Shown here in pieces: positions 35,590-57,178 of a stretch of 64,000 nucleotides of DNA. The translations under genes and the position numbers were made by a program. This stretch comes from Nitrospirota bacterium (GTDB lineage: Bacteria > Nitrospirota > Nitrospiria > JACQBZ01): positions 3,807-67,806 of the forward strand of contig JACQFA010000002.1 of NCBI GenBank assembly GCA_016200255.1. Reading direction: 5' to 3'. Numbering within the stretch: position 1 is the first letter of the stretch; each line of letters begins with the position of its first letter. Under the pieces are notes generated by a model, which saw nothing but the letters and a program-made list of their open reading frames with translations, made no database searches and was not told where the DNA came from.

Positions 35590-36999
35590 ATGGGTTGGTT
35601 TTCAAAGAAGACACGCAAGGTACTGGTCTTGGGACTGGATTGTGCCACGCCTCAGCTGGTTTTTGACCGCTGGCTAAAGGATCTTCCCAATATTAAGAGT
35701 CTTGTTGATCGCAGCGTTTACGGGGAAATGAAAAGCTGCGACCCGCCGATTACCGTCCCGGCATGGGCTTCGATGATGTCCAGCAAGAATCCGGGGCGTC
35801 TCGGCATCTACGGTTTCCGAAACCGCGCCGATTATTCCTACGACAAATTGACCATGGCTAATTCCACCTCGGTGAAAGAGGACCGGGTATGGGATATTCT
35901 TTCCCGCGCCGGAAAACAGGTCGCCTTGATCGGGGTTCCCCAGACCTATCCCCCCAAACCGATCAACGGCCATATGGTTACCTGCTTTCTCACCCCCGAT
36001 ATCAGCAGCAACTTTACGTATCCGGCCGAATTCCGGAATGAAGTGCAAAAGGTGGTGGGGGAATACATTCTCGACGTGAAAGATTTCAGGACGGAAAATA
36101 AGGAGCTGATCCTCCGTCAGATTTTTGAAATGACCGAAAAGCGTTTCAAACTGGCCCGGCACATGCTCAAAAACAAGCCGTGGGATTATTTCATGATGGT
36201 CGAAATGGGCGTGGACCGGATCCATCACGGTTTCTGGAAGTACATGGACACGACCCATCGCAAATACGAGGTCGGCAACCCCTTTGAGAACGCCATCTAC
36301 GATTATTACCGGTACCTCGACCGCGAAATCGGGGAAATCCTTTCGCTGATTGATTCCGATACGGTGGTCTTCCTCGTTTCGGATCACGGAGCGAAGAAGA
36401 TGGAGGGCGGAATCTGCATTAACGAGTGGTTCCGCCGGGAGGGCTATTTAAAACTGGCGGAGGATCCCGCGGGCCCGACGCCCATTTCCAGGGCCTCGGT
36501 GGACTGGCGGGAGACGAAGGCCTGGGGCGAGGGCGGTTACTATTCCCGGATTTTTATGAACGTCAAGGGGCGCGAGCCGCACGGCGCGATTGATCCGAAG
36601 GATTATGAAACGGTGCGGACTGAATTAATCGCGAAGCTGGAGGCCCTGACGGACGAAAAGGGGCAGCCCATTGGGACGAAGGTCTATCGGCCGGAGGAGC
36701 TCTATCCCGAGGTGCGGGGCATCGCGCCGGATTTGATCGCCTACTTTGGGAATCTCTATTGGCGCTCGGTGGGAAGCGTGGGTCTCGGGTCGATCCATAC
36801 ATTTGAGAACGATACCGGGCCCGATGATGCGAACCACGCCGAGCACGGAATTTTTGTCATGGCGGATCCAAAGCGGTCGGGAGAGGGCCGGAAACTAACC
36901 GGTCTTCAATTGATGGACATGGCCCCGACCATTCTGAAACTGTTTGACATGCCCGTTCCGCACGACATGGAAGGAAAGGCGGTATCATTTGCAGGCTGA
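35590..36999 (+). CDS. alkaline-phosphatase-superfamily protein, nucleotide pyrophosphatase/phosphodiesterase type (paralog 1)
   Basis: 'VLVLGLDCAT', 'DPPITVPAWASMMSSKNPGRLGIYGF' (nucleophile Thr context) and 'FLVSDHGA' are present. It is homologous to 46518..48245 and 48265..49998. Confidence 0.8.
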   Translation: MGWFSKKTRKVLVLGLDCATPQLVFDRWLKDLPNIKSLVDRSVYGEMKSCDPPITVPAWASMMSSKNPGRLGIYGFRNRADYSYDKLTMANSTSVKEDRVWDILSRAGKQVALIGVPQTYPPKPINGHMVTCFLTPDISSNFTYPAEFRNEVQKVVGEYILDVKDFRTENKELILRQIFEMTEKRFKLARHMLKNKPWDYFMMVEMGVDRIHHGFWKYMDTTHRKYEVGNPFENAIYDYYRYLDREIGEILSLIDSDTVVFLVSDHGAKKMEGGICINEWFRREGYLKLAEDPAGPTPISRASVDWRETKAWGEGGYYSRIFMNVKGREPHGAIDPKDYETVRTELIAKLEALTDEKGQPIGTKVYRPEELYPEVRGIAPDLIAYFGNLYWRSVGSVGLGSIHTFENDTGPDDANHAEHGIFVMADPKRSGEGRKLTGLQLMDMAPTILKLFDMPVPHDMEGKAVSFAG

Positions 37000-37573
37000 T
37001 GCTTTCAAAGGCGTAACGATATGGCTGACCGGCCTGCCCTCGGCCGGAAAAACAACGCTGGCCCATTTGTTGGGAAACAAACTGCGGGAAAGAGGGATCA
37101 CCGGGCTTGAAATTCTGGACGGGGATGTCATTCGGCTGAATCTTTGCAAGGATCTGGGGTTCAGCCAGGAAGACCGGATGACCAATATCCGGCGGATCGC
37201 CTTCGTCTCGCAGCTTTTAACGCGCCACGGCATCATCGTGATCGTCGCCGCAATCTCGCCCTATCGGGAAAGCCGAGATCTCGCCCGTCAGGAGATCAAG
37301 GATTTCGTCGAGGTGTTTGTCAAATGTCCGATGGACGTCCTGATCGGTCGGGATGTGAAAGGGCACTATAAAAAAGCGCTGGCTGGAAATCTCCCCCATT
37401 TCACCGGGGTATCGGACCCGTATGAAGAGCCGCTCCATCCGGAGATCCTGGTCGAAACCGACAAGGAAACGCCCGAGGCGTCGGCCGCAAAGATTCTCGG
37501 TTTTCTCAAAAAAATGGGATACCTGCCCGATTCTTTTTCGACCCTATATGAAAAACGGAAAAGCGCGCCATGA
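36944..37573 (+). CDS. cysC: adenylyl-sulfate (APS) kinase
   Basis: 'GVTIWLTGLPSAGKTTLA' (P-loop), 'LDGDVIRLNLCKDLGFSQEDR' and 'VAAISPYRESR' are present. The start is either the ATG at 36944 (56-nt overlap with the upstream gene) or the TTG at 36989 (11-nt overlap). Confidence 0.9.
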   Translation: MTCPFRTTWKERRYHLQADAFKGVTIWLTGLPSAGKTTLAHLLGNKLRERGITGLEILDGDVIRLNLCKDLGFSQEDRMTNIRRIAFVSQLLTRHGIIVIVAAISPYRESRDLARQEIKDFVEVFVKCPMDVLIGRDVKGHYKKALAGNLPHFTGVSDPYEEPLHPEILVETDKETPEASAAKILGFLKKMGYLPDSFSTLYEKRKSAP

Positions 37574-38448
37574 TCGGCCGACGGATCGATCTTCATGCCC
37601 ACAGCACGGCCTCGGACGGCAGTCTCACCCCGCCGGAACTGATCCGGTATGCCGCCGATAAAAAACTTTCCGCAATGGCCCTGACGGACCACGATTGCGT
37701 GGACGGACTGGATGAGGCCGTGGCCGAAGGGGAGCGGCTGGGCATCGAGGTGATTCCGGCGGTGGAGTTGAGCGCCGACCATCCCGACGGGACGATGCAT
37801 ATCCTGGGTTTTTTCGTGGACCGGCGGCATGAGGGGTTTTGCGGCCGGTTGCGGCGACTACAAGAGGCCCGCCGGGAGAGAAACCCGAAGATCATTCAGA
37901 ATCTTCAGTCGTTGGGATTGAATCTTACCTATGACGAAGTGGTCGCCGCGTCCGGAGGAGGACAGGTCGGCCGGCCCCATTTTGCGAAGGTTCTGGTCCA
38001 GAAGGGGTATGTCTCCTCGATGCAGGAGGCTTTCGAGCGATATCTGAAAAAAGGGGCGCCGGGATATGTCGAAAAGTTCCGGTTCAGTCCTCAGGATGCC
38101 ATCGCCGCGATTCATGAGGCGGGGGGCGTGGCCGTGCTGGCGCATCCGTTTACGTTGTACAAGGACAATTCCGTCCCGCTGGACCCGCTGCTCGAAGGGC
38201 TGTCGCAGGCCGGTCTGGACGGGATAGAAGTGATCTACAGCACTTATTCCGGGGAGCAGACGCGGTATTATCGCGAGCGGGCCGAGAAGTACAACCTGCT
38301 GCCGTCGGGCGGATCCGATTTTCACGGGGCCCATAAACCCGGAATCGATCTCGGGGTCGGTCAGGGCCGTCTCGAGGTTCCCTATGAACTGCTCGAACCG
38401 CTTCGAAAAAAGGCTCAAGGCTATAAAGTCTCGGTTCATGCCGGTTGA
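37570..38448 (+). CDS. PHP-domain phosphoesterase, TrpH/YciV (COG0613) family; candidate 3',5'-nucleoside-bisphosphate (pAp) phosphatase
   Basis: 'IDLHAHSTASDGSLTP', 'LTDHD', 'GGVAVLAHP' and 'GGSDFHG' are present, colinear with E. coli TrpH. There is an ATGA overlap with cysC. Confidence 0.8.
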   Translation: MIGRRIDLHAHSTASDGSLTPPELIRYAADKKLSAMALTDHDCVDGLDEAVAEGERLGIEVIPAVELSADHPDGTMHILGFFVDRRHEGFCGRLRRLQEARRERNPKIIQNLQSLGLNLTYDEVVAASGGGQVGRPHFAKVLVQKGYVSSMQEAFERYLKKGAPGYVEKFRFSPQDAIAAIHEAGGVAVLAHPFTLYKDNSVPLDPLLEGLSQAGLDGIEVIYSTYSGEQTRYYRERAEKYNLLPSGGSDFHGAHKPGIDLGVGQGRLEVPYELLEPLRKKAQGYKVSVHAG

Positions 38449-38498
38449 CGATCGCCGTTGATTCCATTTGGAAGGACCTTATAACGCGGGAGATGATC

Positions 38499-39791
38499 AT
38501 GAGCGTCGATAAACCGTTTGACGTTATTGTTATGGGCGGAGGACCGGGCGGGTCCAGCACCGCCACGTTTTTAGCTCAAAAGGGCCACAAGGTTTTGCTC
38601 CTTGAAAAAGAGCGATTCCCCCGGTTTCATATCGGCGAATCGTTGTTGCCGGCGCTATGGGACATCTGGGACGCGCTCGGAGTCACTGCGGAGCTTGAGG
38701 CGAAGGGTTTTGTGGTGAAGCAGGGCGTCAACTTTGCGATGTTTAATTCGCCCAACGATATCGCCCTTTTGACGGGCGAATACCCCGAGTACTTTCAGCG
38801 CCCGTATGCCTATCATGTCGATCGGGCGAGCTTCGACGAGATCCTTCTGAATCACGCGCGCCGGACCGGCGTCGAGGTTCGGGAGGAATGGACCGTCCAG
38901 GACGTCTTGTTTGAGGGAAGCCGGGCCGTCGGTGTGTTGGCCGGGCCCAACGGACAGGAAGCCCGGCCGATCCGGTCGTCCATCGTCGTGGACGCCACCG
39001 GACGCTCCAGTTTGATCTCGCGAAAGCTCGGCTGGCACAAGCGCGATCCGAAACTCTCCAAAGTCGCCTATTTCACGCATTTTAAAGGCGCCCGCCGCCA
39101 GGAGACGATCGAGATTTTAAAAGACCCTGTTTTATGCCAGGACGACACCTATATGACCGATATCCACACCATCGACGCCGGATGGATCTGGTACATCCCG
39201 CTAACGGATGACATTGTGAGCGTCGGAGCGGTCGTGGATTTGAAACACGACTTCGGAGCGCCGGACCCGCAGACGCGCTTCAACCGTGCGATAGCCAGTT
39301 GCTCCCGAATCCGCGACTGGGTCGGATCGTCGGAACAGCTGATCGAGATGCAGGCCATCTCGAACATTTCATACCTCAGCGATTCGTTTGTCGGAGACGG
39401 CTTCGTCTTGGTCGGAGACGCCTCGATGTTCGTGGACCCGATCTTTTCGGCCGGCGTGACGATCGCGATGCGCGGCGGGATGTTCGCGGCCGATGCGATT
39501 CATGAGGCTTTTCTGGCCGGGGATTTCAGCGCCGCGCGGCTGAAGCCTTATGAGACGAAGATCCGCCATCCGATGGGCCGTATCTTCAAGATGATTTACA
39601 ACTGGTATCACATACTGCAAAACAAGGATGCCGGCAATATTTTTGCCATGTCCCGACAGATGCCGCTTTTGCGCGAGCGGCTGATCGTACTCCTGAGCGG
39701 CGGATATGACAAGGTTGACATGGAGGCTATCCTCAAAGCGACCGAGGGCCAGATGGATCGCCTGACCGCCGGTCCGGGGAAAATGGCCTGA
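38499..39791 (+). CDS. FAD-dependent halogenase-like oxidoreductase (PltA / Trp-halogenase superfamily)
   Basis: 'VMGGGPGGS' (GxGxxG), 'FPRFHIGESLLP', Lys in 'VVKQG', 'GWIWYIPL' (WxWxIP) and 'GDASMFVDPIFSAG' are present. The ATG at 38499 follows GGGAG; the listed 38445 start is a TTG. Confidence 0.75.
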   Translation: MSVDKPFDVIVMGGGPGGSSTATFLAQKGHKVLLLEKERFPRFHIGESLLPALWDIWDALGVTAELEAKGFVVKQGVNFAMFNSPNDIALLTGEYPEYFQRPYAYHVDRASFDEILLNHARRTGVEVREEWTVQDVLFEGSRAVGVLAGPNGQEARPIRSSIVVDATGRSSLISRKLGWHKRDPKLSKVAYFTHFKGARRQETIEILKDPVLCQDDTYMTDIHTIDAGWIWYIPLTDDIVSVGAVVDLKHDFGAPDPQTRFNRAIASCSRIRDWVGSSEQLIEMQAISNISYLSDSFVGDGFVLVGDASMFVDPIFSAGVTIAMRGGMFAADAIHEAFLAGDFSAARLKPYETKIRHPMGRIFKMIYNWYHILQNKDAGNIFAMSRQMPLLRERLIVLLSGGYDKVDMEAILKATEGQMDRLTAGPGKMA

Positions 39792-39815
39792 GTGTAACTG
39801 ACAACGGAGGAGGAG

Positions 39816-42809
39816 ATGGATTTTTCAAAATCTAAGAAACGTGCGTCGGGCGGGGTCATGTTTCATCATCCGGTCGCATTTTGGCTGGGGACCGCTGTCC
39901 TGGTGGCGGGTGTCATCATGCATCTGCCGGACTACTTCAATGCCGGAGGCATGAGCTACCGCATGGCCGGGATGCCTATGTCACAGATCATGCTGATCGG
40001 CATGGCGCTGATTCTCGGTGGAATCGGCCTGGCCGCGTATGGACTGTTTCCGCGGAATTTTGGACGACCGACCGTGGATGTGGGAGAAGCATTTCATATA
40101 CGGGCGATGGACGATGCCCCCCTCACGGCGGCCCACTGGCGGCTGGTGGCGGTGCTCGGAACGGCGCTGATCGTGGACGTGATGAAGCCGGCCACGCTGG
40201 GCTTCGTCGTCCCGGGCTCCAGGGCCGAATACGGGTTGACCGCTTCCCAGGTGGCGTGGTTTCCGTTGGTGGCTCTGACCGGCACGACCATCGGTTCGGT
40301 GATCTGGGGCATGCTGGCGGATCGGCTCGGCCGACGGGGCGCGATCCTGATGGCGGCGCTGATGTTTGTCGGGACGACGATCTGCGGCGCGATGCCTTCG
40401 TTTGCCTGGAATCTATTCATGTGTTTTCTGATGGGACTGTCGGCCGGCGGGCTGTTGCCGATCGTCTTTGCGCTTCTGGCCGAAACGATGCCGGCGAAAC
40501 AGCGCGGTTGGATCACGGTGTTGATCGGCGGAATTGGAACGGTCGGCGGCTATCTCGCGGCCAGTGGAGCCGCCGCATTGTTTGAACCCCATTTCAACTG
40601 GCGGATCCTGTGGTTTTTGAATCTGCCGACCGGCGCTCTCGTGATTGCGCTGAACCGGTTTATTCCGGAATCTCCCCGCTACCTTTTTATGCACGGTCGG
40701 TCTGATGAGGCCCGTGATATGATGCAGAATTTCGGCATCACGGTGGAGAAGGAAAAGGTTGCGGCCCGGTCCATCGCCGCCCATCAAAAGGAGCATTATC
40801 TGACCAGTCTGTCCCGGTTATTCAGCGGGGTCTATCGCAGTCAGACTCTCAGTCTCGTTCTGCTCGGGTTGGCCTGGGGGCTGGTCAACTGGGGCTTCCT
40901 CACCTGGCTTCCGAGTAATTTAAGGGAGATGGGCCTGTCGGCCGGAGTTTCGAACGGAATACTGGCACGGTCCGCGTTGATCGCCATTCCCGGTATCCTA
41001 ATTGTGTCTTGGCTCTACGGTCACTGGAGCAGCAAGAAAAGCATGGTGATGTTTGGCCTGGCGACCGCCACGGTGTTGGTCGGGTTTTCCGTGATCGGCA
41101 GCGATCTTGCTAAAAACACCGGTCTGCTGGTAATGCTCGTCATGGGTCTGCTTGTCTGCAGCAGCGGAGTGATCGCGACGCTGCTTCCCTACAGCGCCGA
41201 GGTTTATCCCACGCGTCTACGGGGTATTGGAGCCGGGGTCACTTCCGCCAGCAGTAAGTTTGGCGGGATCGTTGGTCCTCCTCTCATCGCCGCCGTGATC
41301 ACCCTGTGGCCCGGTCTCACGGTTGCGGCACTGGTGACGGCGGTGCCGATCGCCGTAGCGGCGATCCTGCTCGGCCTTAAAGGATTTGAAACACGGGGCC
41401 GGCGTCTTGAAGAGATCCAGTCTTCCGCCGCCGCAAAACCAAAAGGGTCCAAGAAGCGGGATGTGGTCATTATCGGAGGAGGTCCGGCCGGAGCAGCCAG
41501 CGCGATGTTCCTGGCAAAAGAAGGCCTCCGGTCGCTGATCATCGAGGAGGAACCCTTCCCGCGTTATCACATCGGCGAGTCATTGACCGGCGCCGGCGGC
41601 CAGGTTCTGCGGGAGCTGGGACTGGACGTCGAAATGATCAAACGCAATCATCCGGTCAAGCAGGGGGTCAAAGTCTACGGCAACAACCCGAAGGGCACCT
41701 GGTTTGTACCCGTCATGGGGCGTGACGAAAACTGGAACCTCCATGACTCGGAGACCTGGCAGGTGCGTCGGAGCGAGTTCGACCGCATGATGCTCAACGA
41801 GGCCTCCTCGCGCGGCGCAGACCTTCTTCAGGGAAAGGCGACCCGGCCGCTCCGGAACGAGGACGGCTCGGTGCGGGGCGTGGAAGTCCGAATGGCCGAC
41901 GGCGGCGTTCAGGAGATCGAGTCGGAGGTTTTGCTCGACTGCTCGGGTCAGGCGACCTTCTTGGCGAATGCCGGTGTGACGGGGACCAAACATATTGGCA
42001 ATCACGTCAAGCATATCGCGATCTTCTCGCAGGTGGCCGGCGCCATCCGGGATCAGGGCGGCAGCCGCGACAACCATAAGGACAATACGCTCATTTTTTA
42101 TCAAAAGAAGTTCCACTGGGCCTGGTTCATTCCGCTTGACGACGACATCGTGAGCGTCGGGGTCGTGGTCCCGTCGTCCTATTTCCAGGAAAGGAAGGAG
42201 ACCAAACGGGATTTCCTGATTCGGGAACTGCATGAACTGCACCCGGAGCTCAAGCGTCGCCTTCCGGAAATCAAGCTGGTCGAGGAGGTTCATGCAATTC
42301 CGGACTACACCTATCAGGTGGACGAATTCTGCGGCAAGGGCTTCATCTGTATCGGAGACGCCCACCGTTTTATCGATCCGATCTTTTCTTTCGGCGTGAC
42401 GGTTGCGATGCGGGAGGCCCAGTTCGCGGCGCCGGCGATCAAGGACTATCTTGGGGGCGCCCATCGCGATCGGGCCAATCCGTTTGCCGGGCACCAGCTA
42501 TTGTGCGACAAGGGAGCCGACGTCTTGGAGGACACCATCGACCTGTTCTGGGACCAGCCGACGACCTTCGCATTTTTCGCGCATCAACGCCACAAGGAGA
42601 TGATCACGGACGTTTTTGCCGGGCGGATCTATGAAAGGCAGCCCTCCGCCTCCATCGTGGATGTGCGGAAGCTCCTCAATCGCCAGCAGGATCGTGAACG
42701 GTTTTACGAAAATCCGGACCTCTACTCGGTTCCGATCGGTTCGCGCTACCATCCTGAACGCGCATCCATTTGGGAGCCGAATTCTTCAATGGCCTCCGCG
42801 GAAGAATAG
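39816..42809 (+). CDS. fusion protein: MFS permease (N-terminal ~535 aa) + FAD-dependent halogenase-like domain (C-terminal ~450 aa)
   Basis: A single 997-codon ORF preceded by a GGAGGAGGAG RBS. MFS marks are 'GMLADRLGRRG', 'IPESPRYLF' and 'FETRGRRLEEI'. The FAD-domain marks are 'IIGGGPAGAAS', 'FPRYHIGESL', 'VKQG', 'HWAWFIPL' and 'GDAHRFIDPIFSFG'. Confidence 0.8.
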   Translation: MDFSKSKKRASGGVMFHHPVAFWLGTAVLVAGVIMHLPDYFNAGGMSYRMAGMPMSQIMLIGMALILGGIGLAAYGLFPRNFGRPTVDVGEAFHIRAMDDAPLTAAHWRLVAVLGTALIVDVMKPATLGFVVPGSRAEYGLTASQVAWFPLVALTGTTIGSVIWGMLADRLGRRGAILMAALMFVGTTICGAMPSFAWNLFMCFLMGLSAGGLLPIVFALLAETMPAKQRGWITVLIGGIGTVGGYLAASGAAALFEPHFNWRILWFLNLPTGALVIALNRFIPESPRYLFMHGRSDEARDMMQNFGITVEKEKVAARSIAAHQKEHYLTSLSRLFSGVYRSQTLSLVLLGLAWGLVNWGFLTWLPSNLREMGLSAGVSNGILARSALIAIPGILIVSWLYGHWSSKKSMVMFGLATATVLVGFSVIGSDLAKNTGLLVMLVMGLLVCSSGVIATLLPYSAEVYPTRLRGIGAGVTSASSKFGGIVGPPLIAAVITLWPGLTVAALVTAVPIAVAAILLGLKGFETRGRRLEEIQSSAAAKPKGSKKRDVVIIGGGPAGAASAMFLAKEGLRSLIIEEEPFPRYHIGESLTGAGGQVLRELGLDVEMIKRNHPVKQGVKVYGNNPKGTWFVPVMGRDENWNLHDSETWQVRRSEFDRMMLNEASSRGADLLQGKATRPLRNEDGSVRGVEVRMADGGVQEIESEVLLDCSGQATFLANAGVTGTKHIGNHVKHIAIFSQVAGAIRDQGGSRDNHKDNTLIFYQKKFHWAWFIPLDDDIVSVGVVVPSSYFQERKETKRDFLIRELHELHPELKRRLPEIKLVEEVHAIPDYTYQVDEFCGKGFICIGDAHRFIDPIFSFGVTVAMREAQFAAPAIKDYLGGAHRDRANPFAGHQLLCDKGADVLEDTIDLFWDQPTTFAFFAHQRHKEMITDVFAGRIYERQPSASIVDVRKLLNRQQDRERFYENPDLYSVPIGSRYHPERASIWEPNSSMASAEE

Positions 42810-43982: not shown

Positions 43983-45587
43983 ATGAATCCTCAAATAAAC
44001 AAAAATTTTCTACTGCAGCATCTCTTGACCTCCGGCGCGCTTCGCGATCCGGATGCGATGGCGGTGGTCTGCCGGGGCGCGCGATTGACCTACGGCCAGC
44101 TGGAGCGATCTTCCGACAGGATGGCCCGGCTCCTTTGTGAGGAAGGCGTGCGGCCGGGCGACCGTGTCGGAATATTTTTCCCCAAATCGGCCGAGACCCT
44201 GACCGCGATCTTCGGCATCTTGAAGGCCGGGGCGGTTTATGTGCCGATCGATCCCAAGGGACCCGCTCAGCGCGCGGCCTACATCATCCGGGACTGCGGA
44301 ATTCAAGTCCTGTTGACCGCGGCCAAGCAGAAAAGTCTTCTGACCCAGATCCTTCGCGAGGCGGCGCCCCTGCGGCTGCTGCTCTTCATGGATACTGCGG
44401 CCTCGATGGAATCGACGGACAGCCGTTCCGGTCGAGTCCTGGCCTGGCCGGAGGCGCAGGCGGCCGTGACGGAGGGTCGACCGGATCTTCCGACCATCCA
44501 TACGGACCTGGCCTACATTCTGTACACCTCCGGCTCGACCGGCCGTCCCAAGGGCGTCATGCTGAGTCATCTGAATGCGATGACTTTTGTGGACTGGGCC
44601 GTAAGTTATTTTGAGCTCCGGCCGAAGGATCGTCTTTCCAATCATGCCCCGATGCATTTTGATCTGTCCGTTTTCGACCTCTTTGCGTCCTTCAAGGCCG
44701 GCGCGTCCGTCTTTCCGATTCCGGAGGAGATCACCTTTTTCCCGATTCAGGTGGCCCAGTTCATTCAAGATCATCGCCTCACGGTCTGGTATTCGGTGCC
44801 CTCGGCCTTGATCCAGTTGCTCCAGCACGGGGAACTCCAACGGTTTGATCTTTCCGGACTCCGGTCCGTTCTGTTTGCCGGCGAGGTTTTTCCGGTGAAG
44901 TATCTTCGAATGCTGAAGGCCGCTCTCCCCGCCGCCAAGCTGTTCAACCTGTACGGACCGACCGAAACGAATGTATGCACGGTCCACCCGGTGCAGGATC
45001 TCGCGGCGGATCAAGCCATCCCGATCGGCAAGGCCTGTGCCAACGCGGCCGTCGTTGCGATGAATGAAAATAACGAACCGATCCAGGCGGGCGAAACAGG
45101 AGAGCTGTGCGTCAGCGGCCCGACCGTGATGAAGGGCTACTGGGGGCATCCGGATCTCACGGCCGCTGTCCTGGTTCCCGGTCCGGCGGAAGGCGGCGGT
45201 ACGGAGAGCGTTTACCGCACGGGCGATTTGGTGACGATCAATGAAAAGGGCGAGTACCTGTTTATCGGAAGGCGCGATCATATGATCAAGAGCCGCGGCT
45301 TCCGGATCGAGCTGGGCGAGATCGAGGCGGCGCTGGTCGACCATCCGGGGGTACAGGAGGCGGCGGTCGTCGCGATTCCGGATGAGGAAGCGGGCAACCG
45401 GATCAAGGCCGTGATTGTTCCGACCGCGGTCGCGACCTTGACGCGGGAGGAGATCGAAACGCACTGCGCGAAGAGACTCCCCCGCTACATGATTCCGGAG
45501 ATCATCGAGTTCTGCAAGGCGCTGCCGCGGACTTCGACCGGAAAAATGGATAAAACGATACTGGTAAAGGAAACAGTCCGGTCCTGA
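43983..45587 (+). CDS. stand-alone adenylation enzyme (ANL superfamily, amino-acid-adenylation type)
   Basis: Core motifs 'LAYILYTSGSTGRPKGV', 'HFDLSVFD', 'NLYGPTET', 'YRTGDLV', 'GRRDHMIKSRGFRIELGEIE' and 'PRTSTGKMDK' are present. There is no fused C or T domain. The ATG is at 43983. Confidence 0.85.
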   Translation: MNPQINKNFLLQHLLTSGALRDPDAMAVVCRGARLTYGQLERSSDRMARLLCEEGVRPGDRVGIFFPKSAETLTAIFGILKAGAVYVPIDPKGPAQRAAYIIRDCGIQVLLTAAKQKSLLTQILREAAPLRLLLFMDTAASMESTDSRSGRVLAWPEAQAAVTEGRPDLPTIHTDLAYILYTSGSTGRPKGVMLSHLNAMTFVDWAVSYFELRPKDRLSNHAPMHFDLSVFDLFASFKAGASVFPIPEEITFFPIQVAQFIQDHRLTVWYSVPSALIQLLQHGELQRFDLSGLRSVLFAGEVFPVKYLRMLKAALPAAKLFNLYGPTETNVCTVHPVQDLAADQAIPIGKACANAAVVAMNENNEPIQAGETGELCVSGPTVMKGYWGHPDLTAAVLVPGPAEGGGTESVYRTGDLVTINEKGEYLFIGRRDHMIKSRGFRIELGEIEAALVDHPGVQEAAVVAIPDEEAGNRIKAVIVPTAVATLTREEIETHCAKRLPRYMIPEIIEFCKALPRTSTGKMDKTILVKETVRS

Positions 45588-45622: not shown

Positions 45623-45898
45623 ATGATGGACAGTGCAATCATCGAAGAGAAGATCAAAACCTATATAATGACGGACCTGGCGCGCGATCACTCCGGGTCG
45701 GATTTGAAACGGGACGAATCCCTGATCGACCGGGGAATTATCGATTCGCTCGGGCTTTTCAAGCTGATCGCATTTATAGAGGAGGAATTCGGGGTTGCGG
45801 TCGAGCCCCAGGAGGTCCGAACCGATAATTTTGAAACCCTGGCGATGGTATCCGACCTGGTCGGGAAGAAAATCGCCAGGAAGTCCGCCCGTTCGTAG
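45623..45898 (+). CDS. acyl/peptidyl carrier protein
   Basis: 91 aa with 'LIDRGIIDSLGLFKLIAFIEEEFG', the DSL phosphopantetheine-attachment motif. It has a GGAGGAGG RBS. Confidence 0.85.
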   Translation: MMDSAIIEEKIKTYIMTDLARDHSGSDLKRDESLIDRGIIDSLGLFKLIAFIEEEFGVAVEPQEVRTDNFETLAMVSDLVGKKIARKSARS

Positions 45899-45921: not shown

Positions 45922-46521
45922 ATGTTTGATACCATCCGAGGGGATCTGGGAAGAAAGCGTCAGACGTATATCGTCCGGGCGATGGATCAGACCTGGTTCA
46001 ACCGGAACATCAAGATTTATCTTCAGCAGGGCAGTATCGCGGTGGCCGTTTTCCGGTTCGGGCAGTGGGTCCAACGGCTTCGAATTCCGGTGCTGAAGCA
46101 GATCCTGTTCACGGTCTACTACATTCTGAATCTGGCCGTGATCATTTTTTTCGGCATCAACATCCAGCTCAGCGCCAACATCGGCCGGGGGTTTATTGTC
46201 CATAATTATTCCGGGGTCTTTCTGGGACGGATTACGATCGGAGAGAACTGCATCGTCAATCAGGGCGTGACGATCGGGAACATCCGCGGCGAGCCGGGCC
46301 GTCCGGTTCTTGGAAATAACGTCTATATTGGGGTCAGCGCCGTTGTATTGGGAAACGTGAAAATCGGAAACAATGTCGTGATCGGGGCCAACTCGCTGGT
46401 GATCACGAACGTGCCGGACAACTGCACCGTGGTGGGGGTGCCGTCCCGGATTGTTTCCCGTCGGCCGACCAGTCCCTACTTGAAATTTGGAAATGAACCG
46501 GCGGCGGGGTCCAAGGCATGA
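45922..46521 (+). CDS. left-handed-beta-helix O-acyltransferase (serine-acetyltransferase / WcaB-like)
   Basis: Hexapeptide repeats are present ('IGENCIVNQGVTIGN..VLGNNVYIGVSAVVLGNVKIGNNVVIGANSLV'). The N-terminal helical region is typical of EPS-cluster SAT-like enzymes. Confidence 0.8.
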   Translation: MFDTIRGDLGRKRQTYIVRAMDQTWFNRNIKIYLQQGSIAVAVFRFGQWVQRLRIPVLKQILFTVYYILNLAVIIFFGINIQLSANIGRGFIVHNYSGVFLGRITIGENCIVNQGVTIGNIRGEPGRPVLGNNVYIGVSAVVLGNVKIGNNVVIGANSLVITNVPDNCTVVGVPSRIVSRRPTSPYLKFGNEPAAGSKA

Positions 46522-48245
46522 GCGCATCCCCGTCCTCAAAACCGCGCGTCCTGATCATCGGGCTGGATGGGGCCACCCTAGATCTCGTGGTCCCCTGGGC
46601 CTCCGATGGAAAACTGCCTCACATGGCCCGCCTCCTGAAGGAGGGCACATGGGGACCGCTTCAGTCTCCCATCCCCCCCATCACGCCGCCGTCCTGGAGC
46701 AGCTTCATGACCGGGATGAATCCCGGAAAGCACGGCGTATTTCATTTCATTGAACCGCAGCCCGGTAGTTACGGGATGCGGTACATCAATGCGGCCCACC
46801 GCAAGGCCCGCACGATCTGGAGCATCCTTTCGGACGCTGGCCTGACCGTCGGCGTAATGAATCTTCCTTTTACCTATCCTCCCGAGGCCGTCAACGGATT
46901 CATGATTTCGGGAATGGATACCCCGGATGAAACCAGCGACTTCGTCCATCCGCGGGCGCTCCGGGCCGAGCTGGAGCGGACCGTGGGGAAAATCAATCTA
47001 GACATCCGTTACCTCGGCTTTATGTCAACGGATGAGCGACGCGCGGCCGTTCTAAAAGAGCTGGCCCAGATCGATGAGCAGCGCACCCGGATGGCGCTCT
47101 ATCTTCTGGAGAAGCATCCGGCCGATGTCATGATGTTCGCCTACACCTCCTCCGATACGGCCCACCACTATTTCTGGCAGTTCATGGATCCGCAGCACCC
47201 GTTTTACGATCCGGTGGGGGCCAAAAAATTCGGAGGGGCCGTTCTGGAAATATACCAGCGGCTGGACCGCGCCGTCGGTCTTCTTCTGGAGCGGGTTTCC
47301 GAGGAGACGTCGGTCATCCTCGTCTCCGATCACGGGGGCGGACCCGTGTCGGACAAGGTCTTATACCTTAACCGTTTCCTGGCCAACATTGGATTGCTGG
47401 CGTACAAGACCAAGGGCCCGCTTGGCAACTGGGCGTGGCTGCAACGGCCGGTCCGGTATCTCTATGGATGGCTGCGCAGCTCGCTCTCTTCCAAACAGAA
47501 AAGCCGGCTCGCCAGGCTCTTCCCGATACTGCGGCGACGGTTGGAGGCCTCCTACACCGCCTTCAGTCAGATTGATTGGTCGCGGACCCAGGCCTTTTGT
47601 AATGAAGTCCTGATGTCGCCCCCCAATATCTGGATCAATCTCAAAGGCGACAAACCCCAGGGGATTGTGGAGTCGGGTCAGTATGATTCGCTGGTGGGCC
47701 GGATCATCGCTCATTTGTACGAGCTCAAGGATCCCCGCACCGGGCGGCAGCTCATCCGGAAAGTTTACCGGCGCGACGAGATCTATCAAGGCCCTTATGT
47801 AAACTCGGCTCCCGATCTGACCTTGTGCTGGTGGGAAAGGGACTCCTTCGTCACCAAGCCGAGCTTTCCGGAGGATCGGGGAAAACCGGTCGTCCAGATC
47901 CGGTCGGAGGGATTTCAGGACGGCTCGGAATGGAGCGGAACGCACACGCTGGACGGGATCCTGCTGCTCAAAGGGAAAGTGTTCCGATCGGGCGGCGCCG
48001 CGAAGGACAGCCGGATCATCGATCTCGCCCCGACGCTGCTTCATATACTGGGTCTGCCGGTTCCGGAGGAGATGGACGGCCGCGTGCTGACCGAGTTATT
48101 GGACGAAACCTTCCGGGCGGGGCACCCCATTCAATACCAAAAGAGCACGGGCGGCGACAGCCGTCCGGCTGGTGACGGCAGTTATTCGGAAGAGGATGCC
48201 GAAAAAATTGAAAAGCGCCTGCAGGGGCTTGGCTACATTGATTAA
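46518..48245 (+). CDS. alkaline-phosphatase-superfamily protein, NPP/phosphodiesterase type (paralog 2)
   Basis: 'VLIIGLDGAT', 'PPITPPSWSSFMTGMNPGKHGVF' and 'LVSDHGG' are present, with C-terminal tail 'YSEEDAEKIEKRLQGLGYID'. There is an ATGA overlap with the upstream gene. Confidence 0.8.
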   Translation: MSASPSSKPRVLIIGLDGATLDLVVPWASDGKLPHMARLLKEGTWGPLQSPIPPITPPSWSSFMTGMNPGKHGVFHFIEPQPGSYGMRYINAAHRKARTIWSILSDAGLTVGVMNLPFTYPPEAVNGFMISGMDTPDETSDFVHPRALRAELERTVGKINLDIRYLGFMSTDERRAAVLKELAQIDEQRTRMALYLLEKHPADVMMFAYTSSDTAHHYFWQFMDPQHPFYDPVGAKKFGGAVLEIYQRLDRAVGLLLERVSEETSVILVSDHGGGPVSDKVLYLNRFLANIGLLAYKTKGPLGNWAWLQRPVRYLYGWLRSSLSSKQKSRLARLFPILRRRLEASYTAFSQIDWSRTQAFCNEVLMSPPNIWINLKGDKPQGIVESGQYDSLVGRIIAHLYELKDPRTGRQLIRKVYRRDEIYQGPYVNSAPDLTLCWWERDSFVTKPSFPEDRGKPVVQIRSEGFQDGSEWSGTHTLDGILLLKGKVFRSGGAAKDSRIIDLAPTLLHILGLPVPEEMDGRVLTELLDETFRAGHPIQYQKSTGGDSRPAGDGSYSEEDAEKIEKRLQGLGYID

Positions 48246-48264
48246 CTTATCGTAACGGAGCCGG

Positions 48265-49998
48265 ATGCCGGAAGGATCGCCACAGGGACGCAGCGTCTTC
48301 ATCCTTGGATTGGACGGGGGGACGTATGATTTGATTCTGCCGTGGGTCCAAGAGGGGCGCCTGCCGAATCTGGGGCGGCTGATTCAATCGGGCAGCCATG
48401 CGGAGCTGGCCTCGACCGTTCCGCCGATGACGCCGCCCGGATGGACGTCGTTCATGACCGGGATGAATCCAGGAAAACACGGCATCTTCGATTTTACGGA
48501 GCGGGAGCCGGGGCGCTACGAGGTCAAGATCATGAATGCGACCGACCGGCAGGCCCGCACGATCTGGTCGCTCATGAGTCAGGCCGGGAAACGGGTGGCC
48601 TCCATCGGCGTGCCGCTCACCTATCCCCCGGAGCCGGTCAACGGCGTGATGATCAGCGGGTTTGATTCGCCGGTGCTCGACCGGCGGATCATGCATCCGC
48701 CCGAACTGTTCGACGAACTGGAGAAGTCTGTAGGGGGATATCCCGTTTCGCCCGATTTCGTCCGGCATGCGGTGCGCGGGGATCTGAAACGGGCGGTCGA
48801 AATCATCTGCGAGACGATGGATCAAAAGGCCCGGGCGGTGGAATATCTTCTCAAACGGGAGGCCTGGGATTGTTTTATGCTGGTGTTCGGCGAGACGGAC
48901 GCCTGCATCCATTATTTCTGGGGACACCACGATCCTGCCTCGCCCCACCGCCCCCGGCATCCGGATCCGGGACCGGATCCGATCCGGACGGTGTACGAAA
49001 AGGTGGACGAGATTCTCGGCCGGTTGTTACCGTTGCTTCCGCCCGATTCCGGCATGATGCTCATTTCGGATCACGGGACCGGCGGCGCGGGACGCAAGAT
49101 GGTCTATCTGAACCGGTGGCTTGAAGCGGAGGGTTTTCTCGCCTTCCGGGCCGGCTCCGGACGCGGTTGTCTCCGGACGATGAACTGGCGGTTGTTGGAA
49201 GAAGCCCGGTCCTGGGCCCGCGCCGTCCTGCCGCAATCGATCCTCAAGCGGTTGAGATACCGTTCGGGTCTTGGCGCCCGGCTGGAGTCCAATCAGCGGT
49301 TTTCGGGACTGGATTGGAAGCGGACCGCGGTCTATTCCGATGAAACGCCGCATTATCCGAATCTGTGGGTCAATCTGAAGGGGCGGGAGCCGCAGGGGGT
49401 CGTGAATCCGGGCGAGGAGTACGAGTCGCTCCGGGAGCGGATCCTTGAGCGGTTGTCCGAATGGCGGGACCCCGAGACCCGGCGGCCGTTGATCAAACGG
49501 GCGTACAAACGGGAAGAGGTTTACCACGGCCCCTGTCTGGAGAGGGCGCCGGATATACTGATCGCCTGGAATCTGGACGGAAACTATTCCTATCTGAACG
49601 GCTCCAGTCTCATGGCCTCGGGCAGGGCCCCGGTGGTTGCGATCGATCCGACCGGTTTCTGGAGATCCAAATCAATGCTGAACCGGGGAGGCAGTCACCG
49701 GGAGAACGGAATCTTCCTGATCCGCGGCGAAGGAGTTCAACGAGGGCATCGCCTGCTCAAGGCCGGCATCGCGGACATGGCGCCCACGCTGCTTTACTGG
49801 ATGGGTCTTCCCGTTCCGTCCGACATGGACGGGACGGTATTGACGGAGGCGTTTGAGGATTCCTACCGGCGGGGTCATCCGGTTCATCGCGACGGGATTT
49901 CCGGCCAGGAGACCCAGGACCGCGCGCGGCTGGTTTATTCCGAAGAGGAAACGAAGAAGGTCGAAGAACGGTTGCAAAGCCTGGGGTATATCGAATGA
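48265..49998 (+). CDS. alkaline-phosphatase-superfamily protein, NPP/phosphodiesterase type (paralog 3)
   Basis: 'VFILGLDGGT', 'PPMTPPGWTSFMTGMNPGKHGIF' and 'LISDHGT' are present, with C-terminal tail 'YSEEETKKVEERLQSLGYIE'. It is colinear with paralog 2. Confidence 0.8.
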   Translation: MPEGSPQGRSVFILGLDGGTYDLILPWVQEGRLPNLGRLIQSGSHAELASTVPPMTPPGWTSFMTGMNPGKHGIFDFTEREPGRYEVKIMNATDRQARTIWSLMSQAGKRVASIGVPLTYPPEPVNGVMISGFDSPVLDRRIMHPPELFDELEKSVGGYPVSPDFVRHAVRGDLKRAVEIICETMDQKARAVEYLLKREAWDCFMLVFGETDACIHYFWGHHDPASPHRPRHPDPGPDPIRTVYEKVDEILGRLLPLLPPDSGMMLISDHGTGGAGRKMVYLNRWLEAEGFLAFRAGSGRGCLRTMNWRLLEEARSWARAVLPQSILKRLRYRSGLGARLESNQRFSGLDWKRTAVYSDETPHYPNLWVNLKGREPQGVVNPGEEYESLRERILERLSEWRDPETRRPLIKRAYKREEVYHGPCLERAPDILIAWNLDGNYSYLNGSSLMASGRAPVVAIDPTGFWRSKSMLNRGGSHRENGIFLIRGEGVQRGHRLLKAGIADMAPTLLYWMGLPVPSDMDGTVLTEAFEDSYRRGHPVHRDGISGQETQDRARLVYSEEETKKVEERLQSLGYIE

Positions 49999-51438: not shown

Positions 51439-52008
51439 ATGGGGTTCGTCATGGCTTCACCCGTTGGACATTCGCTGGCCGGGGTTTCGCTCTATCTTTT
51501 CCTGACCCGAAAGACGGACGGACCGGCGATCCGGGCCGATTGGAAAACGGCGGCCCTTCTGGTGGCCGCCGCCAATCTTCCGGACATTGATTTTCTCATC
51601 GGGTATGCGGTCTACGGCGATCCGAACCGCATCCACGGCGGGTGGACGCATGCCGGCCTGTTTGCCGCTGCGGCGGCCTGGGTTCTGACCCGGCTGCATC
51701 GGTTCCAACCCTCCGTCGGCACGGCGGGTTGGGCCTACTTTTTTGCGGTTGCATCCCATGGGATTATGGATTTCTTTACCGGTCCGACGATCGGTCTTTA
51801 TCCCTCCTACGGGGTGGCCTTTCTCTGGCCGTTTCACGGCGAAAAATTGAAGTCGCCGGTGACATTCTTTCAGGGCCCGCGGCACCGCAGTCTGGACCAG
51901 TTGCTGACCGTGGACAATCTTTGGGGGATGATGTACGAACTTCTTCTATGGATTCCCCTGGTATGGGGGCTGATCATATTTCTCAGGAAAAACCGGAGAA
52001 CCGAATGA
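51439..52008 (+). CDS. membrane-bound metal-dependent hydrolase (YdjM / DUF457 family)
   Basis: 'SPVGHSLAG', 'PDIDFLIGY', 'GGWTHA' and 'SHGIMDFFTG' are spread over 4-5 TM helices. The start is either 51439 or 51451 (MASPVGH..). Confidence 0.7.
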   Translation: MGFVMASPVGHSLAGVSLYLFLTRKTDGPAIRADWKTAALLVAAANLPDIDFLIGYAVYGDPNRIHGGWTHAGLFAAAAAWVLTRLHRFQPSVGTAGWAYFFAVASHGIMDFFTGPTIGLYPSYGVAFLWPFHGEKLKSPVTFFQGPRHRSLDQLLTVDNLWGMMYELLLWIPLVWGLIIFLRKNRRTE

Positions 52009-53135
52009 TGATGACAAAGACGACGACATGGATCATCGGCGGGACGGCCGGGATCGGGCTCCTCTTTCTGGGCGTGGCGGCATTGAAACATATGGTGCGC
52101 ACCGACGCGACCAAGGCCCGCCTGGTCCATGCAGGGATTCCGGTGGAGATTCAACCGGCCGGTGTTGCAACAATGAATGAAATCATCGGGGCGAGCGGCT
52201 CGTTGCTGCAGGAGAACACGGCGACTCTGACCTCCCGGGTTGCGGCCCTGGTCCAGTCCGTGCCGGTCGAACTGGGCCAATTGGTGCTAAAGGATCAGGT
52301 CTTGACCCAATTTGATTCCCGTCTCCTCGAAGCGGCTGTCGTCAGCGCCAAGGAGAAAGTGGAGGAGGCGCAGGTACAACTCTATCATGCGCAGCAACAG
52401 CTGGAACGCCTCACCATCCTGAATGAGCAGGGGGTCGTGGCGAAATCAGATGTGGAGCAGGCCCAGGTGCAGGCGGCGACCGGAAAACTCAATCTGGCAT
52501 CGGCGCGTCAGGCCCTGATCGAGGCCGAAATCGCCTATGACCATGCCGTCGTGAAATCGCCCGTCAATGCGATCCTTCTCGACCGGTATATCAATCCCGG
52601 CGAAAACGTGAAAGTGGGAGACCGGCTTTTCACGATCGGGACGATCGACCGGGTTTTCATGGTGGCCCATGTCGGGGAAGAAAAGATCGCTTCGGTCCAG
52701 ATCGAACAGGAAGGCGAGGTGACGCTGGATTCTTTTCCGGGCGAGATCTTTCACGGCCGTGTCGTCAAGATTGATCCCACCACCGATTCCAAGACCCGCA
52801 CGTTTTCGGCTTACATCCGGATGGACAATCCCACGCTGCGGTTCAAGCCCGGCCTCACAGGATTCGGTCGGATCCGCCGCTTGATCAGCACGCTGGTCGT
52901 TCCAAACACGGCGATCATCAACCCCGTGGGGGACCGCATGACCCTTTACATCGTGGACGGGACCGGGACCGCGCACCTCCGCTCCGTGCGGACCGGGATC
53001 GTCAGCGACGGCATGACCCAGATCCTGGAGGGACTGACCGAAGGGGAACGCGTGGTGACGGTGGGGCAGCTCTATCTCCGGGACAACGACCGGGTGCAGA
53101 CGAACGGGACTCGTGATCCGAACAAGAAAAACTGA
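52005..53135 (+). CDS. HlyD-family membrane fusion (periplasmic adaptor) protein
   Basis: The ATG at 52005 overlaps the upstream stop (ATGA) and follows GGAGAA. It has an N-terminal anchor helix, a coiled-coil region ('EEAQVQLYHAQQQLERL..') and a beta-barrel C-terminus. The listed 51642 start lies inside the previous gene. Confidence 0.85.
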   Translation: MMMTKTTTWIIGGTAGIGLLFLGVAALKHMVRTDATKARLVHAGIPVEIQPAGVATMNEIIGASGSLLQENTATLTSRVAALVQSVPVELGQLVLKDQVLTQFDSRLLEAAVVSAKEKVEEAQVQLYHAQQQLERLTILNEQGVVAKSDVEQAQVQAATGKLNLASARQALIEAEIAYDHAVVKSPVNAILLDRYINPGENVKVGDRLFTIGTIDRVFMVAHVGEEKIASVQIEQEGEVTLDSFPGEIFHGRVVKIDPTTDSKTRTFSAYIRMDNPTLRFKPGLTGFGRIRRLISTLVVPNTAIINPVGDRMTLYIVDGTGTAHLRSVRTGIVSDGMTQILEGLTEGERVVTVGQLYLRDNDRVQTNGTRDPNKKN

Positions 53136-55931: not shown

Positions 55932-55932
55932 C

Positions 55933-57174: not shown

Positions 57175-57178
57175 TCGT

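Follow-up and report, generated by a model that had tools for sequence, protein, structure and literature searches.

Why would a bacterium make a permease and a halogenase as one protein? The question is raised by an open reading frame (ORF) in a 64,000-nucleotide stretch of DNA from a Nitrospirota bacterium (assembly GCA_016200255.1, contig JACQFA010000002.1, positions 3,807 to 67,806), referred to here as the window. In this ORF a permease of the major facilitator superfamily (MFS) is joined to a flavin adenine dinucleotide (FAD) domain that resembles flavin-dependent halogenases. The question has several parts: whether the fusion is real, what the FAD domain is, in which pathway it stands, and what the permease may contribute. 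The best overall explanation, to which we give a probability of roughly 0.6, is that the ORF is a genuine permease–halogenase fusion lying within a cassette for the conversion of proline to a halogenated pyrrole.

Layout of the fusion ORF

The ORF and its parts are as follows (coordinates are those of the window).

39806..39815, + strand: Shine-Dalgarno-like GGAGGAGGAG, abutting the ATG, read from the sequence
39816..42809, + strand: whole fusion ORF, 997 aa, unbroken in frame and ended by TAG
39870..40049, + strand: two extra N-terminal transmembrane helices (residues 19–78), from hydropathy, the AlphaFold2 helices 19–46 and 57–77, and alignment
40128..41378, + strand: 12-helix MFS core (residues 105–521) with motif A GMLADRLGRRG and PESPR, from Pfam MFS_1 and Sugar_tr
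41421..41459, + strand: basic 13-residue linker SSAAAKPKGSKKR (residues 536–548), of low AlphaFold2 confidence and variable among orthologues
41460..42806, + strand: predicted cytoplasmic, Bmp2-like flavin-dependent halogenase domain (residues 549–997), from PDB phmmer, blastp and Foldseek

The protein is laid out as an MFS permease (residues 1–535), the linker, and the halogenase domain. The initial annotation had described a single 997-codon ORF starting at 39816 behind a quoted upstream sequence, and had quoted motifs for both halves; the ORF was confirmed, and every motif was found in its place. In the permease half, GMLADRLGRRG starts at residue 165, PESPRYL at 284 and FETRGRRLEEIQ at 524. 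In the FAD half, GGGPAG starts at 554, FPRYHIGESL at 581 and VKQG at 614 (its lysine being Lys615), while WAWFIP occupies 768–773 and GDAHRF/FIDPIFSFG 847–860. The four Pfam models proposed there as a check all exceeded their gathering scores: residues 126–536 matched MFS_1 (115 bits) and Sugar_tr (111 bits), and residues 549–983 matched Trp_halogenase (77 bits; 77.4 against a cut-off of 21) and FAD_binding_3 (61 bits). An orthologue that is 91% identical, P0001, uses Met15 as its start, a choice that leaves the fusion unaffected.

A hydropathy scan placed two N-terminal helices at residues 19–37 and 60–78 and twelve more across residues 105–521, and the AlphaFold2 model likewise has 14 transmembrane helices (2 + 12). 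Pfam, hydropathy and AlphaFold thus agree on a permease with two extra N-terminal helices, as had been read from the letters. Segments rich in Lys and Arg lie in the N-terminal tail, in the central loop (residues 283–343) and in the C-terminal tail. Since the helix count is even and the charges follow the positive-inside pattern, the termini of the permease, and hence the FAD domain, are predicted to face the cytoplasm; the topology of the AlphaFold model is the same, and the cytoplasmic placement suggested in the initial annotation was upheld. The mean confidence (pLDDT) of the model was 83.5 and its pTM 0.60, with pLDDT below 50 at both ends and at linker residues 540–544 only.

The model also contains two short beta-strands in cytoplasmic segments (40086-40103 and 40740-40757, residues 91–96 and 309–314), one past the second extra helix and the other within the central loop. 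If paired, these predicted strands would join the N-terminal extension and the MFS core to each other.

The fusion is natural and conserved

A search that covered 5.8 billion proteins returned three full-length fused relatives, P0001, P0002 and P0003, which are 91%, 60% and 58% identical to the query over 98–99% of its length. P0001 comes from an independent assembly, GCA_016198945.1, a groundwater Nitrospirae metagenome-assembled genome (MAG). A fourth relative, P0136 from Dehalococcoidia, is broken at a contig end; what remains is the end of the MFS half with its last helices, followed by a long linker and by the same FAD domain. The linker is in frame in all of them, with a length of 13 residues in the window and in P0001, about 40 in P0002, and about 60 in P0003 and P0136. 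The two longest are rich in Pro, Gln and Ala, and the orthologous linkers are of low complexity. With these four proteins the orthologous fusions that the initial annotation had proposed to look for were found. A 50%-identity representative library held no further MFS–halogenase fusion among its best 150 matches.

An assembly or sequencing error that merged two neighbouring genes would look much the same, and unfused MFS and Bmp2-like neighbours, a stop codon and a few bases apart, do exist (loci L016 and L088-90). This explanation was nevertheless rejected because there are five independent in-frame fusions, from different assemblies and taxa, whose linkers are unlike in length and sequence. 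The GC content of the ORF is also the same as that of the window. We regard the chance of an artefact as negligible: the MFS–halogenase fusion is natural and conserved.

A neighbour-joining tree was built from 111 MFS homologues; in it the MFS halves of the four placeable fusions formed a single clade, which indicates one fusion event. The unfused loci suggest how it came about (the fused halogenase and its unfused counterparts are called FDH-B here, FDH standing for flavin-dependent halogenase, and a second, stand-alone halogenase is called FDH-A). In L016, a Gemmatimonadaceae MAG, the MFS and FDH-B genes are adjacent and unfused, with TAA and 4 nt between them. On the soil metagenome contigs L088-90, FDH-A, MFS and FDH-B follow one another in one frame, and stop codons alone divide them. 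Genes so nearly contiguous make the loss of a stop codon the obvious origin, and it is the most likely cause of the fusion.

The FAD domain resembles the pyrrole halogenase Bmp2

Bmp2 is a flavin-dependent brominase of pyrrolyl-S-Bmp1 from marine Gammaproteobacteria. It was the best match of the FAD domain among solved structures (5bva; 262 bits, E 7e-77 by PDB phmmer), with 38% identity over 372 aa by blastp. The matches that followed were FasV, Mpy16, PltA, ChlB4, 3nix, CmlS, CndH and RadH; nine of the ten best are halogenases, the exception being 3nix, an uncharacterised flavoprotein. When the model was compared by fold using Foldseek, Bmp2 gave a TM-score of 0.92 at an rmsd of 2.6–2.8 Å, and the top 12 matches were all halogenases. 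Four hallmarks were located in the domain.

41475..41492, + strand: GxGxxG dinucleotide-binding motif GGGPAG (residues 554–559), invariant in four fusions
41658..41660, + strand: catalytic-type Lys615 in PVKQGV, aligned to the Lys of Bmp2 PDKPGV
42117..42134, + strand: WxWxIP motif WAWFIP (residues 768–773), aligned to Bmp2 WSWIIP
42369..42395, + strand: second flavin motif FxDPxFSxG, FIDPIFSFG (residues 852–860), from the Bmp2 alignment

All four aligned with Bmp2 and were invariant in the four fusions (K615-Q616-G617 throughout), except for a single Ile-to-Val change in P0002, where the WxWxIP motif reads WSWFVP. Lys615 stands about 60 residues past the dinucleotide fold, the spacing typical of these enzymes. 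The positions that set the number of halogenations in Bmp2, Y302, F306 and A345, were F, V and L here when aligned to the wild type and to the Y302S/F306V/A345W mutant. Two of the three (Y302 and F306, here F and V) lie within the second flavin motif. The clade to which the domain belongs is very large and consists of stand-alone proteins of about 455–465 aa from many phyla, 65–79% identical; some sources annotate such members as pyrrole-2-carbonyl-carrier-protein brominase.

On these similarities the FAD domain is assigned to the flavin-dependent halogenase type, in the carrier-protein-dependent pyrrole class, with Bmp2 as the closest member. Homology and gene context suggest that it would act on a pyrrolyl-S-carrier protein. 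The initial annotation had already read the domain as halogenase-like, with a lysine in VKQG, and had named PrnA, RebH and PltA as comparators. The halogenase assignment and PltA, together with Bmp2 and Mpy16, stood. The free-tryptophan enzymes PrnA and RebH did not, and their type was rejected, being absent from the domain's PDB sequence matches at E ≤ 0.001. An orthologue of CmlS was excluded as well, the score for the CmlS equivalog model NF033113 being 148 bits against a cut-off of 900.

One may ask whether the domain is a halogenase at all, and not a flavoprotein monooxygenase or reductase such as a QhpG/LodB hydroxylase or an enzyme of the geranylgeranyl-reductase type. Sub-threshold NCBIfam matches to QhpG (120 bits), a geranylgeranyl-reductase subfamily (107) and LodB (87) point that way, and no NCBIfam equivalog model was passed. 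The scores, motifs and context speak for a halogenase: apart from 3nix the best PDB matches are halogenases, and Bmp2 scores 262 bits where geranylgeranyl reductase reaches 59; the catalytic lysine and the WxWxIP motif, which is specific to halogenases, are present and conserved across the fusions; and the genomic partners are precisely those of pyrrole halogenases. The non-halogenase types were rejected on these grounds, and we consider such an identity very improbable. Neither of the results that the initial annotation had set as refuting its reading, a grouping with geranylgeranyl reductases or a lysine out of alignment, was obtained.

A predicted proline-to-halopyrrole cassette surrounds the fusion

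The partners just mentioned, overlooked in the initial annotation together with a second halogenase directly upstream, are the following predicted genes.

38445..39791, + strand: stand-alone second halogenase FDH-A, 448 aa, 24 nt upstream of the fusion; Pfam Trp_halogenase 124 bits
42836..43978, + strand: prolyl-carrier-protein dehydrogenase of the acyl-CoA dehydrogenase fold; PDB 4irn (AnaB) 424 bits, 6cxt_B 295, 5zw0 285
43983..45587, + strand: stand-alone L-proline adenylating enzyme, PltF-like; TIGR01733 399 bits against a cut-off of 317
45623..45898, + strand: 91-aa carrier protein with a DSLG serine; best PDB match 2my5 (peptidyl carrier protein), also 6cxt_A, PltL and PigG
45922..46521, + strand: hexapeptide-repeat O-acyltransferase, EpsC/CysE/WcaB-like by NCBIfam, kept in the 93% related locus L006

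FDH-A has its own lysine, WIWYIP and FVDPIFSAG, and its PDB matches were CndH (215 bits), FasV (201), ChlB4 (192), and PltA and Mpy16 (186 each). The dehydrogenase scored 412 bits for PigA and 395 for RedW in NCBIfam, each under its equivalog cut-off. Its longest ORF, from a TTG at 42770, would share 40 nt with the end of the fusion; the ATG at 42836, 27 nt past the fusion stop, is favoured by the orthologue gene call and by alignment, and gives a protein of 380 aa. In a whole-length search with the adenylating enzyme the second module of LgrA came first, and PltF was the best stand-alone match (355 bits). When the pocket segment was searched, PltF was clearly best (194 bits). The pocket code, D-L-F-Y-L-A-L-V-C, is identical at eight of nine positions to that of PltF (D-L-L-Y-L-A-L-V-C), the lone difference being as in PigI. 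A literature search with the code strings of the adenylation domain returned nothing relevant. Among the matches of the carrier protein, 6cxt_A is the carrier domain of Bmp1.

These neighbours make up a cassette of the PltF/L/E/A or Bmp4/1/3/2 type. The same proline cassette is found around stand-alone halogenase relatives (L004) and around the unfused triads of FDH-A, MFS and FDH-B. The hexapeptide-repeat protein is a candidate for acyl transfer to a glycan.

Related arrangements were seen elsewhere. In L001 a didomain of PP-binding and thioesterase lies immediately downstream of the fusion, and P0275, an 841-aa protein of the representative library, consists of a Bmp2-like halogenase, a PP-binding domain and an alpha/beta-hydrolase, effectively a Bmp2–Bmp1 fusion. 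Both echo Bmp1.

The permease family and its halogenase neighbours

The permease half has the 12-helix core of the major facilitator superfamily, built of two halves of six helices each, and motif A (GxxxDRxGRR) lies between TM2 and TM3. Its nearest solved relatives by sequence were SLC22A6/OAT1, SV2A/B and OCT1, at about 60–70 bits in the PDB, and SV2A was the nearest MFS protein by fold (Foldseek). The best NCBIfam match, to the aromatic acid:H+ symporter (AAHS) family TIGR00895, reached 151 bits, far under the cut-off of 418.55, and is a resemblance only; the match to PcaK was also sub-threshold (107 bits). Taken together, the comparisons indicate that the MFS permease is SLC22/AAHS-like and carries two additional helices at its N-terminus.

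The family is widespread, being present in 564 genomes of a one-genome-per-species scan at a typical identity of 50–58%. The TM1 motif DVMKPATLGF is invariant in the family alignment. A His/Met-rich loop, HLPD...MxYxMAGMPMSxxM (39921-40004, residues 36–63), lies between the extra helices, is conserved family-wide and is predicted to be periplasmic. It recalls soft-metal or oxidant-reactive Met motifs.

In unrelated bacteria the MFS gene is a regular member of the proline cassette, usually as a separate gene and placed between FDH-A and FDH-B. With A for the adenylating enzyme, CP for the carrier protein and ACAD for the acyl-CoA dehydrogenase, the gene order is A, CP, FDH-A, MFS, FDH-B, ACAD in L088-90; A, CP, MFS, FDH, ACAD in L100; ACAD, A, MFS, CP, FDH, FDH in L027 (a Betaproteobacteria MAG); and CP, FDH-A, MFS, FDH-B in L016. 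In L086 a halogenase gene is followed by an MFS–halogenase fusion.

A halogenase-like gene was found within 6 kb of the MFS gene in 14 of 81 genome loci and in 9 of 42 metagenome loci; by a rough estimate, well under one such locus would be expected by chance. The adjoining halogenases belong to at least four subfamilies. In Actinomycetota, genes like CndH and PltA lie 24–27 nt upstream of the MFS gene (L008, L009 and L092; L007 is similar). In Gemmatirosa kalamazoonensis (L005) a 533-aa Trp_halogenase-like gene is directly upstream, with a relative in L099, and in Cellvibrionaceae the adjoining genes are of the PrnA type. Two Burkholderiaceae-type loci, L077 (5308-11659) and L111 (3920-9665), contain a halogenase, an FkbO/Hyg5 (XanB2-type) chorismatase, a PlsC-type acyltransferase, a glycosyltransferase (GT2) and the MFS gene. 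This is the order of the xanthomonadin-like arcA-arcE cluster of Azoarcus, except for arcC, the gene of an outer-membrane protein (PMC3949708). The permease may therefore also serve pathways for brominated aryl-polyene pigments. In the MFS tree the halogenase-associated MFS genes fall into at least six clades, from which it follows that the association arose repeatedly.

The family has a second, unrelated fusion partner. P0254 of the representative library (1484 aa in total) is a relative of the permease fused to about 960 residues of FG-GAP/UnbV_ASPIC repeats, and FG-GAP/ASPIC proteins adjoin the MFS gene in G. kalamazoonensis (L005, 10544-16922).

Envelope-glycan and sulfation genes around the cassette

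The cassette is flanked (35590-38448 and 46518-49998) by genes for three 'Phosphodiest' proteins of the alkaline-phosphatase superfamily (469–577 aa), an adenosine 5'-phosphosulfate (APS) kinase and a PHP-family protein. The last two are located as follows.

36944-37573: APS kinase
37570-38448: PHP-family protein, best match 3',5'-nucleoside-bisphosphate (pAp) phosphatase

The arrangement resembles a set for making 3'-phosphoadenosine 5'-phosphosulfate (PAPS) and recycling pAp. No sulfotransferase was recognisable in the window, and such enzymes are present in the related loci L003 and L027; the Phosphodiest proteins might act as sulfotransferase substitutes. A GT4 glycosyltransferase is also near the cassette. 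Further downstream (51642-60298) are HlyD and OEP export components, a Wzx-type flippase, a TPR protein and a 1149-aa membrane protein in which a PMT_2 glycosyltransferase-like region is combined with sugar-binding domains like rhamnosidase-N and GH2-N.

Similar neighbours recur in related loci: DegT aminotransferases, glycosyltransferases, a Bac_transf sugar-phosphate transferase and a carbamoyltransferase in L001; a sulfotransferase, Wzy and Wzx in L003; two GDSL-like proteins, DegT and a glycosyltransferase in L088; and two TPR-sulfotransferases and an LpxL-like acyltransferase in L027. These surroundings suggest that the halopyrrole-carboxyl group ends on a cell-surface glycan or lipid and not as a free toxin.

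Genes for GDSL/SGNH-like acylhydrolases were repeatedly seen beside the carrier cassette (L088, 467-2897; L003, 4999-7596; L004, 9545-10447, the last being weak), and the adenylating enzyme and the carrier protein give scores like those of DltA and DltC. The combination recalls the Dlt-type transfer of carrier-bound acyl groups to an envelope polymer.

What the permease may carry

From homology, the PltF-like enzyme would load L-proline onto the 91-aa carrier protein, and the AnaB/PigA/RedW-like flavoprotein would oxidise prolyl-S-carrier protein, giving a pyrrolinyl or pyrrolyl thioester. The ring, still bound to the carrier, would next be halogenated by FDH-A and the fused FDH-B in turn, at the expense of FADH2, O2 and halide. 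The permease would import halide (Cl− or Br−), the co-substrate for which the fused enzyme needs an outside supply, and the tether would hold the halogenase at the cytoplasmic mouth of this supply. The product would finally be placed, as a halopyrrole-carboxyl group, on a cell-surface glycoconjugate.

A functional link between the permease and halogenation is likely from the gene-neighbourhood data, and fusion partners usually share a metabolite. Halide uptake is tentatively favoured as the activity of the permease because the fused enzyme uses FADH2, O2, halide and a protein-bound acyl group, of which a permease could plausibly deliver halide alone, and because the same orthologous permease accompanies halogenases with different organic substrates. 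It is conceivable, and again tentative, that the whole 14-helix MFS family (at least 564 species genomes) is a dedicated Cl−/Br− uptake system that halogenase pathways have recruited repeatedly, the fusion serving as a halide conduit in low-halide habitats.

Several observations weigh against this proposal. About 83% of the genome loci with the MFS family have no halogenase nearby, so the primary role of the family may be unrelated to halogenation. All-against-all clustering of 729 neighbouring ORFs found no other conserved neighbour in these halogenase-free loci (no family occurred in more than six loci), and a single conserved neighbour that would explain them was rejected. The nearest characterised MFS relatives (OAT1, OCT1, SV2 and AAHS/PcaK) are concerned with organic ions or aromatic acids, none with halide, and we know of no bacterial MFS halide importer. 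AlphaFold predicts no fixed domain interface or channel (pTM 0.60, floppy linker), so that any coupling would be by proximity and not through a sealed channel. On the enzymatic side, no flavin reductase (a frequent partner, not an obligatory one) was recognised among the Pfam-scanned ORFs of the window, nor any thioesterase among the window ORFs scanned. Moreover, the dehydrogenase is closest to AnaB, which stops at pyrroline and not at pyrrole, and the halogenated ring may be less than a full pyrrole.

Instead of halide, the permease may carry an organic aromatic acid, either exporting halogenated pyrrole-2-carboxylate for self-protection or delivery, or importing an aromatic-acid precursor or signal; the fusion would then merely hold the last tailoring enzyme beside the exit. 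The best family-level likenesses (TIGR00895 at 151 bits, PcaK at 107, OAT1, OCT1 and SV2) are of this kind, every associated pathway yields an aromatic acyl unit (pyrrole-2-carboxyl, or one derived from hydroxybenzoate where a chorismatase is encoded, as in L077 and L111), and transporters in biosynthetic clusters are commonly exporters. Such a role is difficult to reconcile with a halogenase whose substrate and product stay carrier-bound, since no free molecule would be handed to the permease. The AAHS score of 151 is also far under its cut-off of 418, and export genes (HlyD, OEP and Wzx) are already present in the cluster of the window. That the same permease, about 50–60% identical, stands beside halogenases of differing organic substrates would be out of the ordinary if it were a substrate-specific carrier. 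The main rival of halide uptake is transport of the product or of an aromatic acid, which is nearly as likely, though doubtful in itself.

The MFS half could also be mainly an anchor or scaffold that holds the halogenase and the carrier machinery at the inner face of the membrane, close to a lipid-linked glycan or lipid acceptor, in which case its cargo would be irrelevant to the halogenation chemistry. This would agree with the repeated occurrence of the cassette within envelope-glycan and lipid loci (glycosyltransferases, Wzx/Wzy, DegT, sulfotransferases, APS kinase) that also carry acyltransferases of the LpxL, PlsC, GDSL or hexapeptide type, and with the unconstrained length of the linker. 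However, the permease keeps every MFS signature and about 50–60% identity across phyla, unfused operons included, which argues for strong purifying selection on it as a transporter; and in most cassettes it is a separate protein, leaving no covalent anchoring there. A role mainly as an anchor is therefore judged improbable.

Flavin-dependent halogenases are sought-after biocatalysts, and little thought is usually given to how their producers obtain halide, notably in freshwater and soil habitats poor in bromide and chloride. Few genomic signals of functional coupling are stronger than a conserved gene fusion, and this one ties a halogenase to a widespread uncharacterised MFS family, offering a testable choice between halide import and the transport of a product or aromatic acid. 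If halide uptake is correct, the permease would be the first bacterial MFS halide importer, and it would explain how freshwater and soil bacteria acquire chloride or bromide for halogenated metabolites. The proline-derived halopyrrole cassettes that uncultured Nitrospirota, Gemmatimonadota, Chloroflexota and Proteobacteria carry in envelope-glycan and sulfation loci would be a pathway type previously unnoticed, and their placement suggests halopyrrole-decorated surface glycoconjugates over diffusible toxins.

Comparison with known systems

The initial annotation knew of no characterised transporter–halogenase fusion, and none was found in the searchable literature. As far as that literature shows, three things are new: the covalent fusion of a transporter with a halogenase, the regular presence of one MFS family in halopyrrole cassettes and beside other halogenases, and the placement of halopyrrole cassettes among glycan and sulfation genes in uncultured bacteria from groundwater and soil. 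The halogenase half itself extends the established Bmp2/PltA/Mpy16 class by one member, and cassettes of this kind are already known.

Bmp2, the best match of the fused domain in both sequence and fold, shares its motifs and lysine, and the partners are alike: a prolyl-carrier dehydrogenase (6cxt_B, a Bmp3 homologue), a proline ligase and a carrier protein. Relatives of the fused domain are also accompanied by carrier–thioesterase didomains like Bmp1, either as neighbours or in the same protein. Bmp2 differs in being a soluble protein of about 400 aa, whereas the fused domain is longer by about 50 residues at its C-terminus and is tied covalently to a 14-helix permease. The selectivity positions are F/V/L in the fusion and Y/F/A in Bmp2. 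The Bmp1 carrier is fused to a releasing thioesterase, whereas the carrier in the window is a stand-alone protein of 91 aa, and no thioesterase was found in the window. The host here is a groundwater Nitrospirota relative and that of Bmp2 a marine gammaproteobacterium, and glycan and sulfation genes take the place that bmp5-10 have in the Bmp system.

PltF/PltL/PltE/PltA of pyoluteorin, like Mpy16 and PigI/PigG/PigA, follow the same logic of adenylation, carrier, oxidase and halogenase. The adenylation pocket code is 8/9 identical to that of PltF, and the upstream FDH-A is like PltA, Mpy16 and CndH. Unlike those cassettes, the present one has two halogenases with an MFS gene between them or fused, has no polyketide synthase or other downstream assembly line, and lies in loci of the envelope-polysaccharide type. 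Closest in organisation are the unfused triads of L088-90 and L016, which have the same order, the same three families and the same cassette partners; there, however, the three proteins are split by stop codons, and FDH-B is 53–54% identical to the fused domain.

The permease half has in common with SLC22 (OAT1/OCT1), SV2 and AAHS (PcaK) proteins a 12-helix core of the Sugar_tr type, motif A and, linking helices 6 and 7, a long cytoplasmic loop. It differs from them in its weak scores (about 60–70 bits in the PDB) and in the two helices, the His/Met-rich loop and the DVMKPATLGF motif that distinguish its family.

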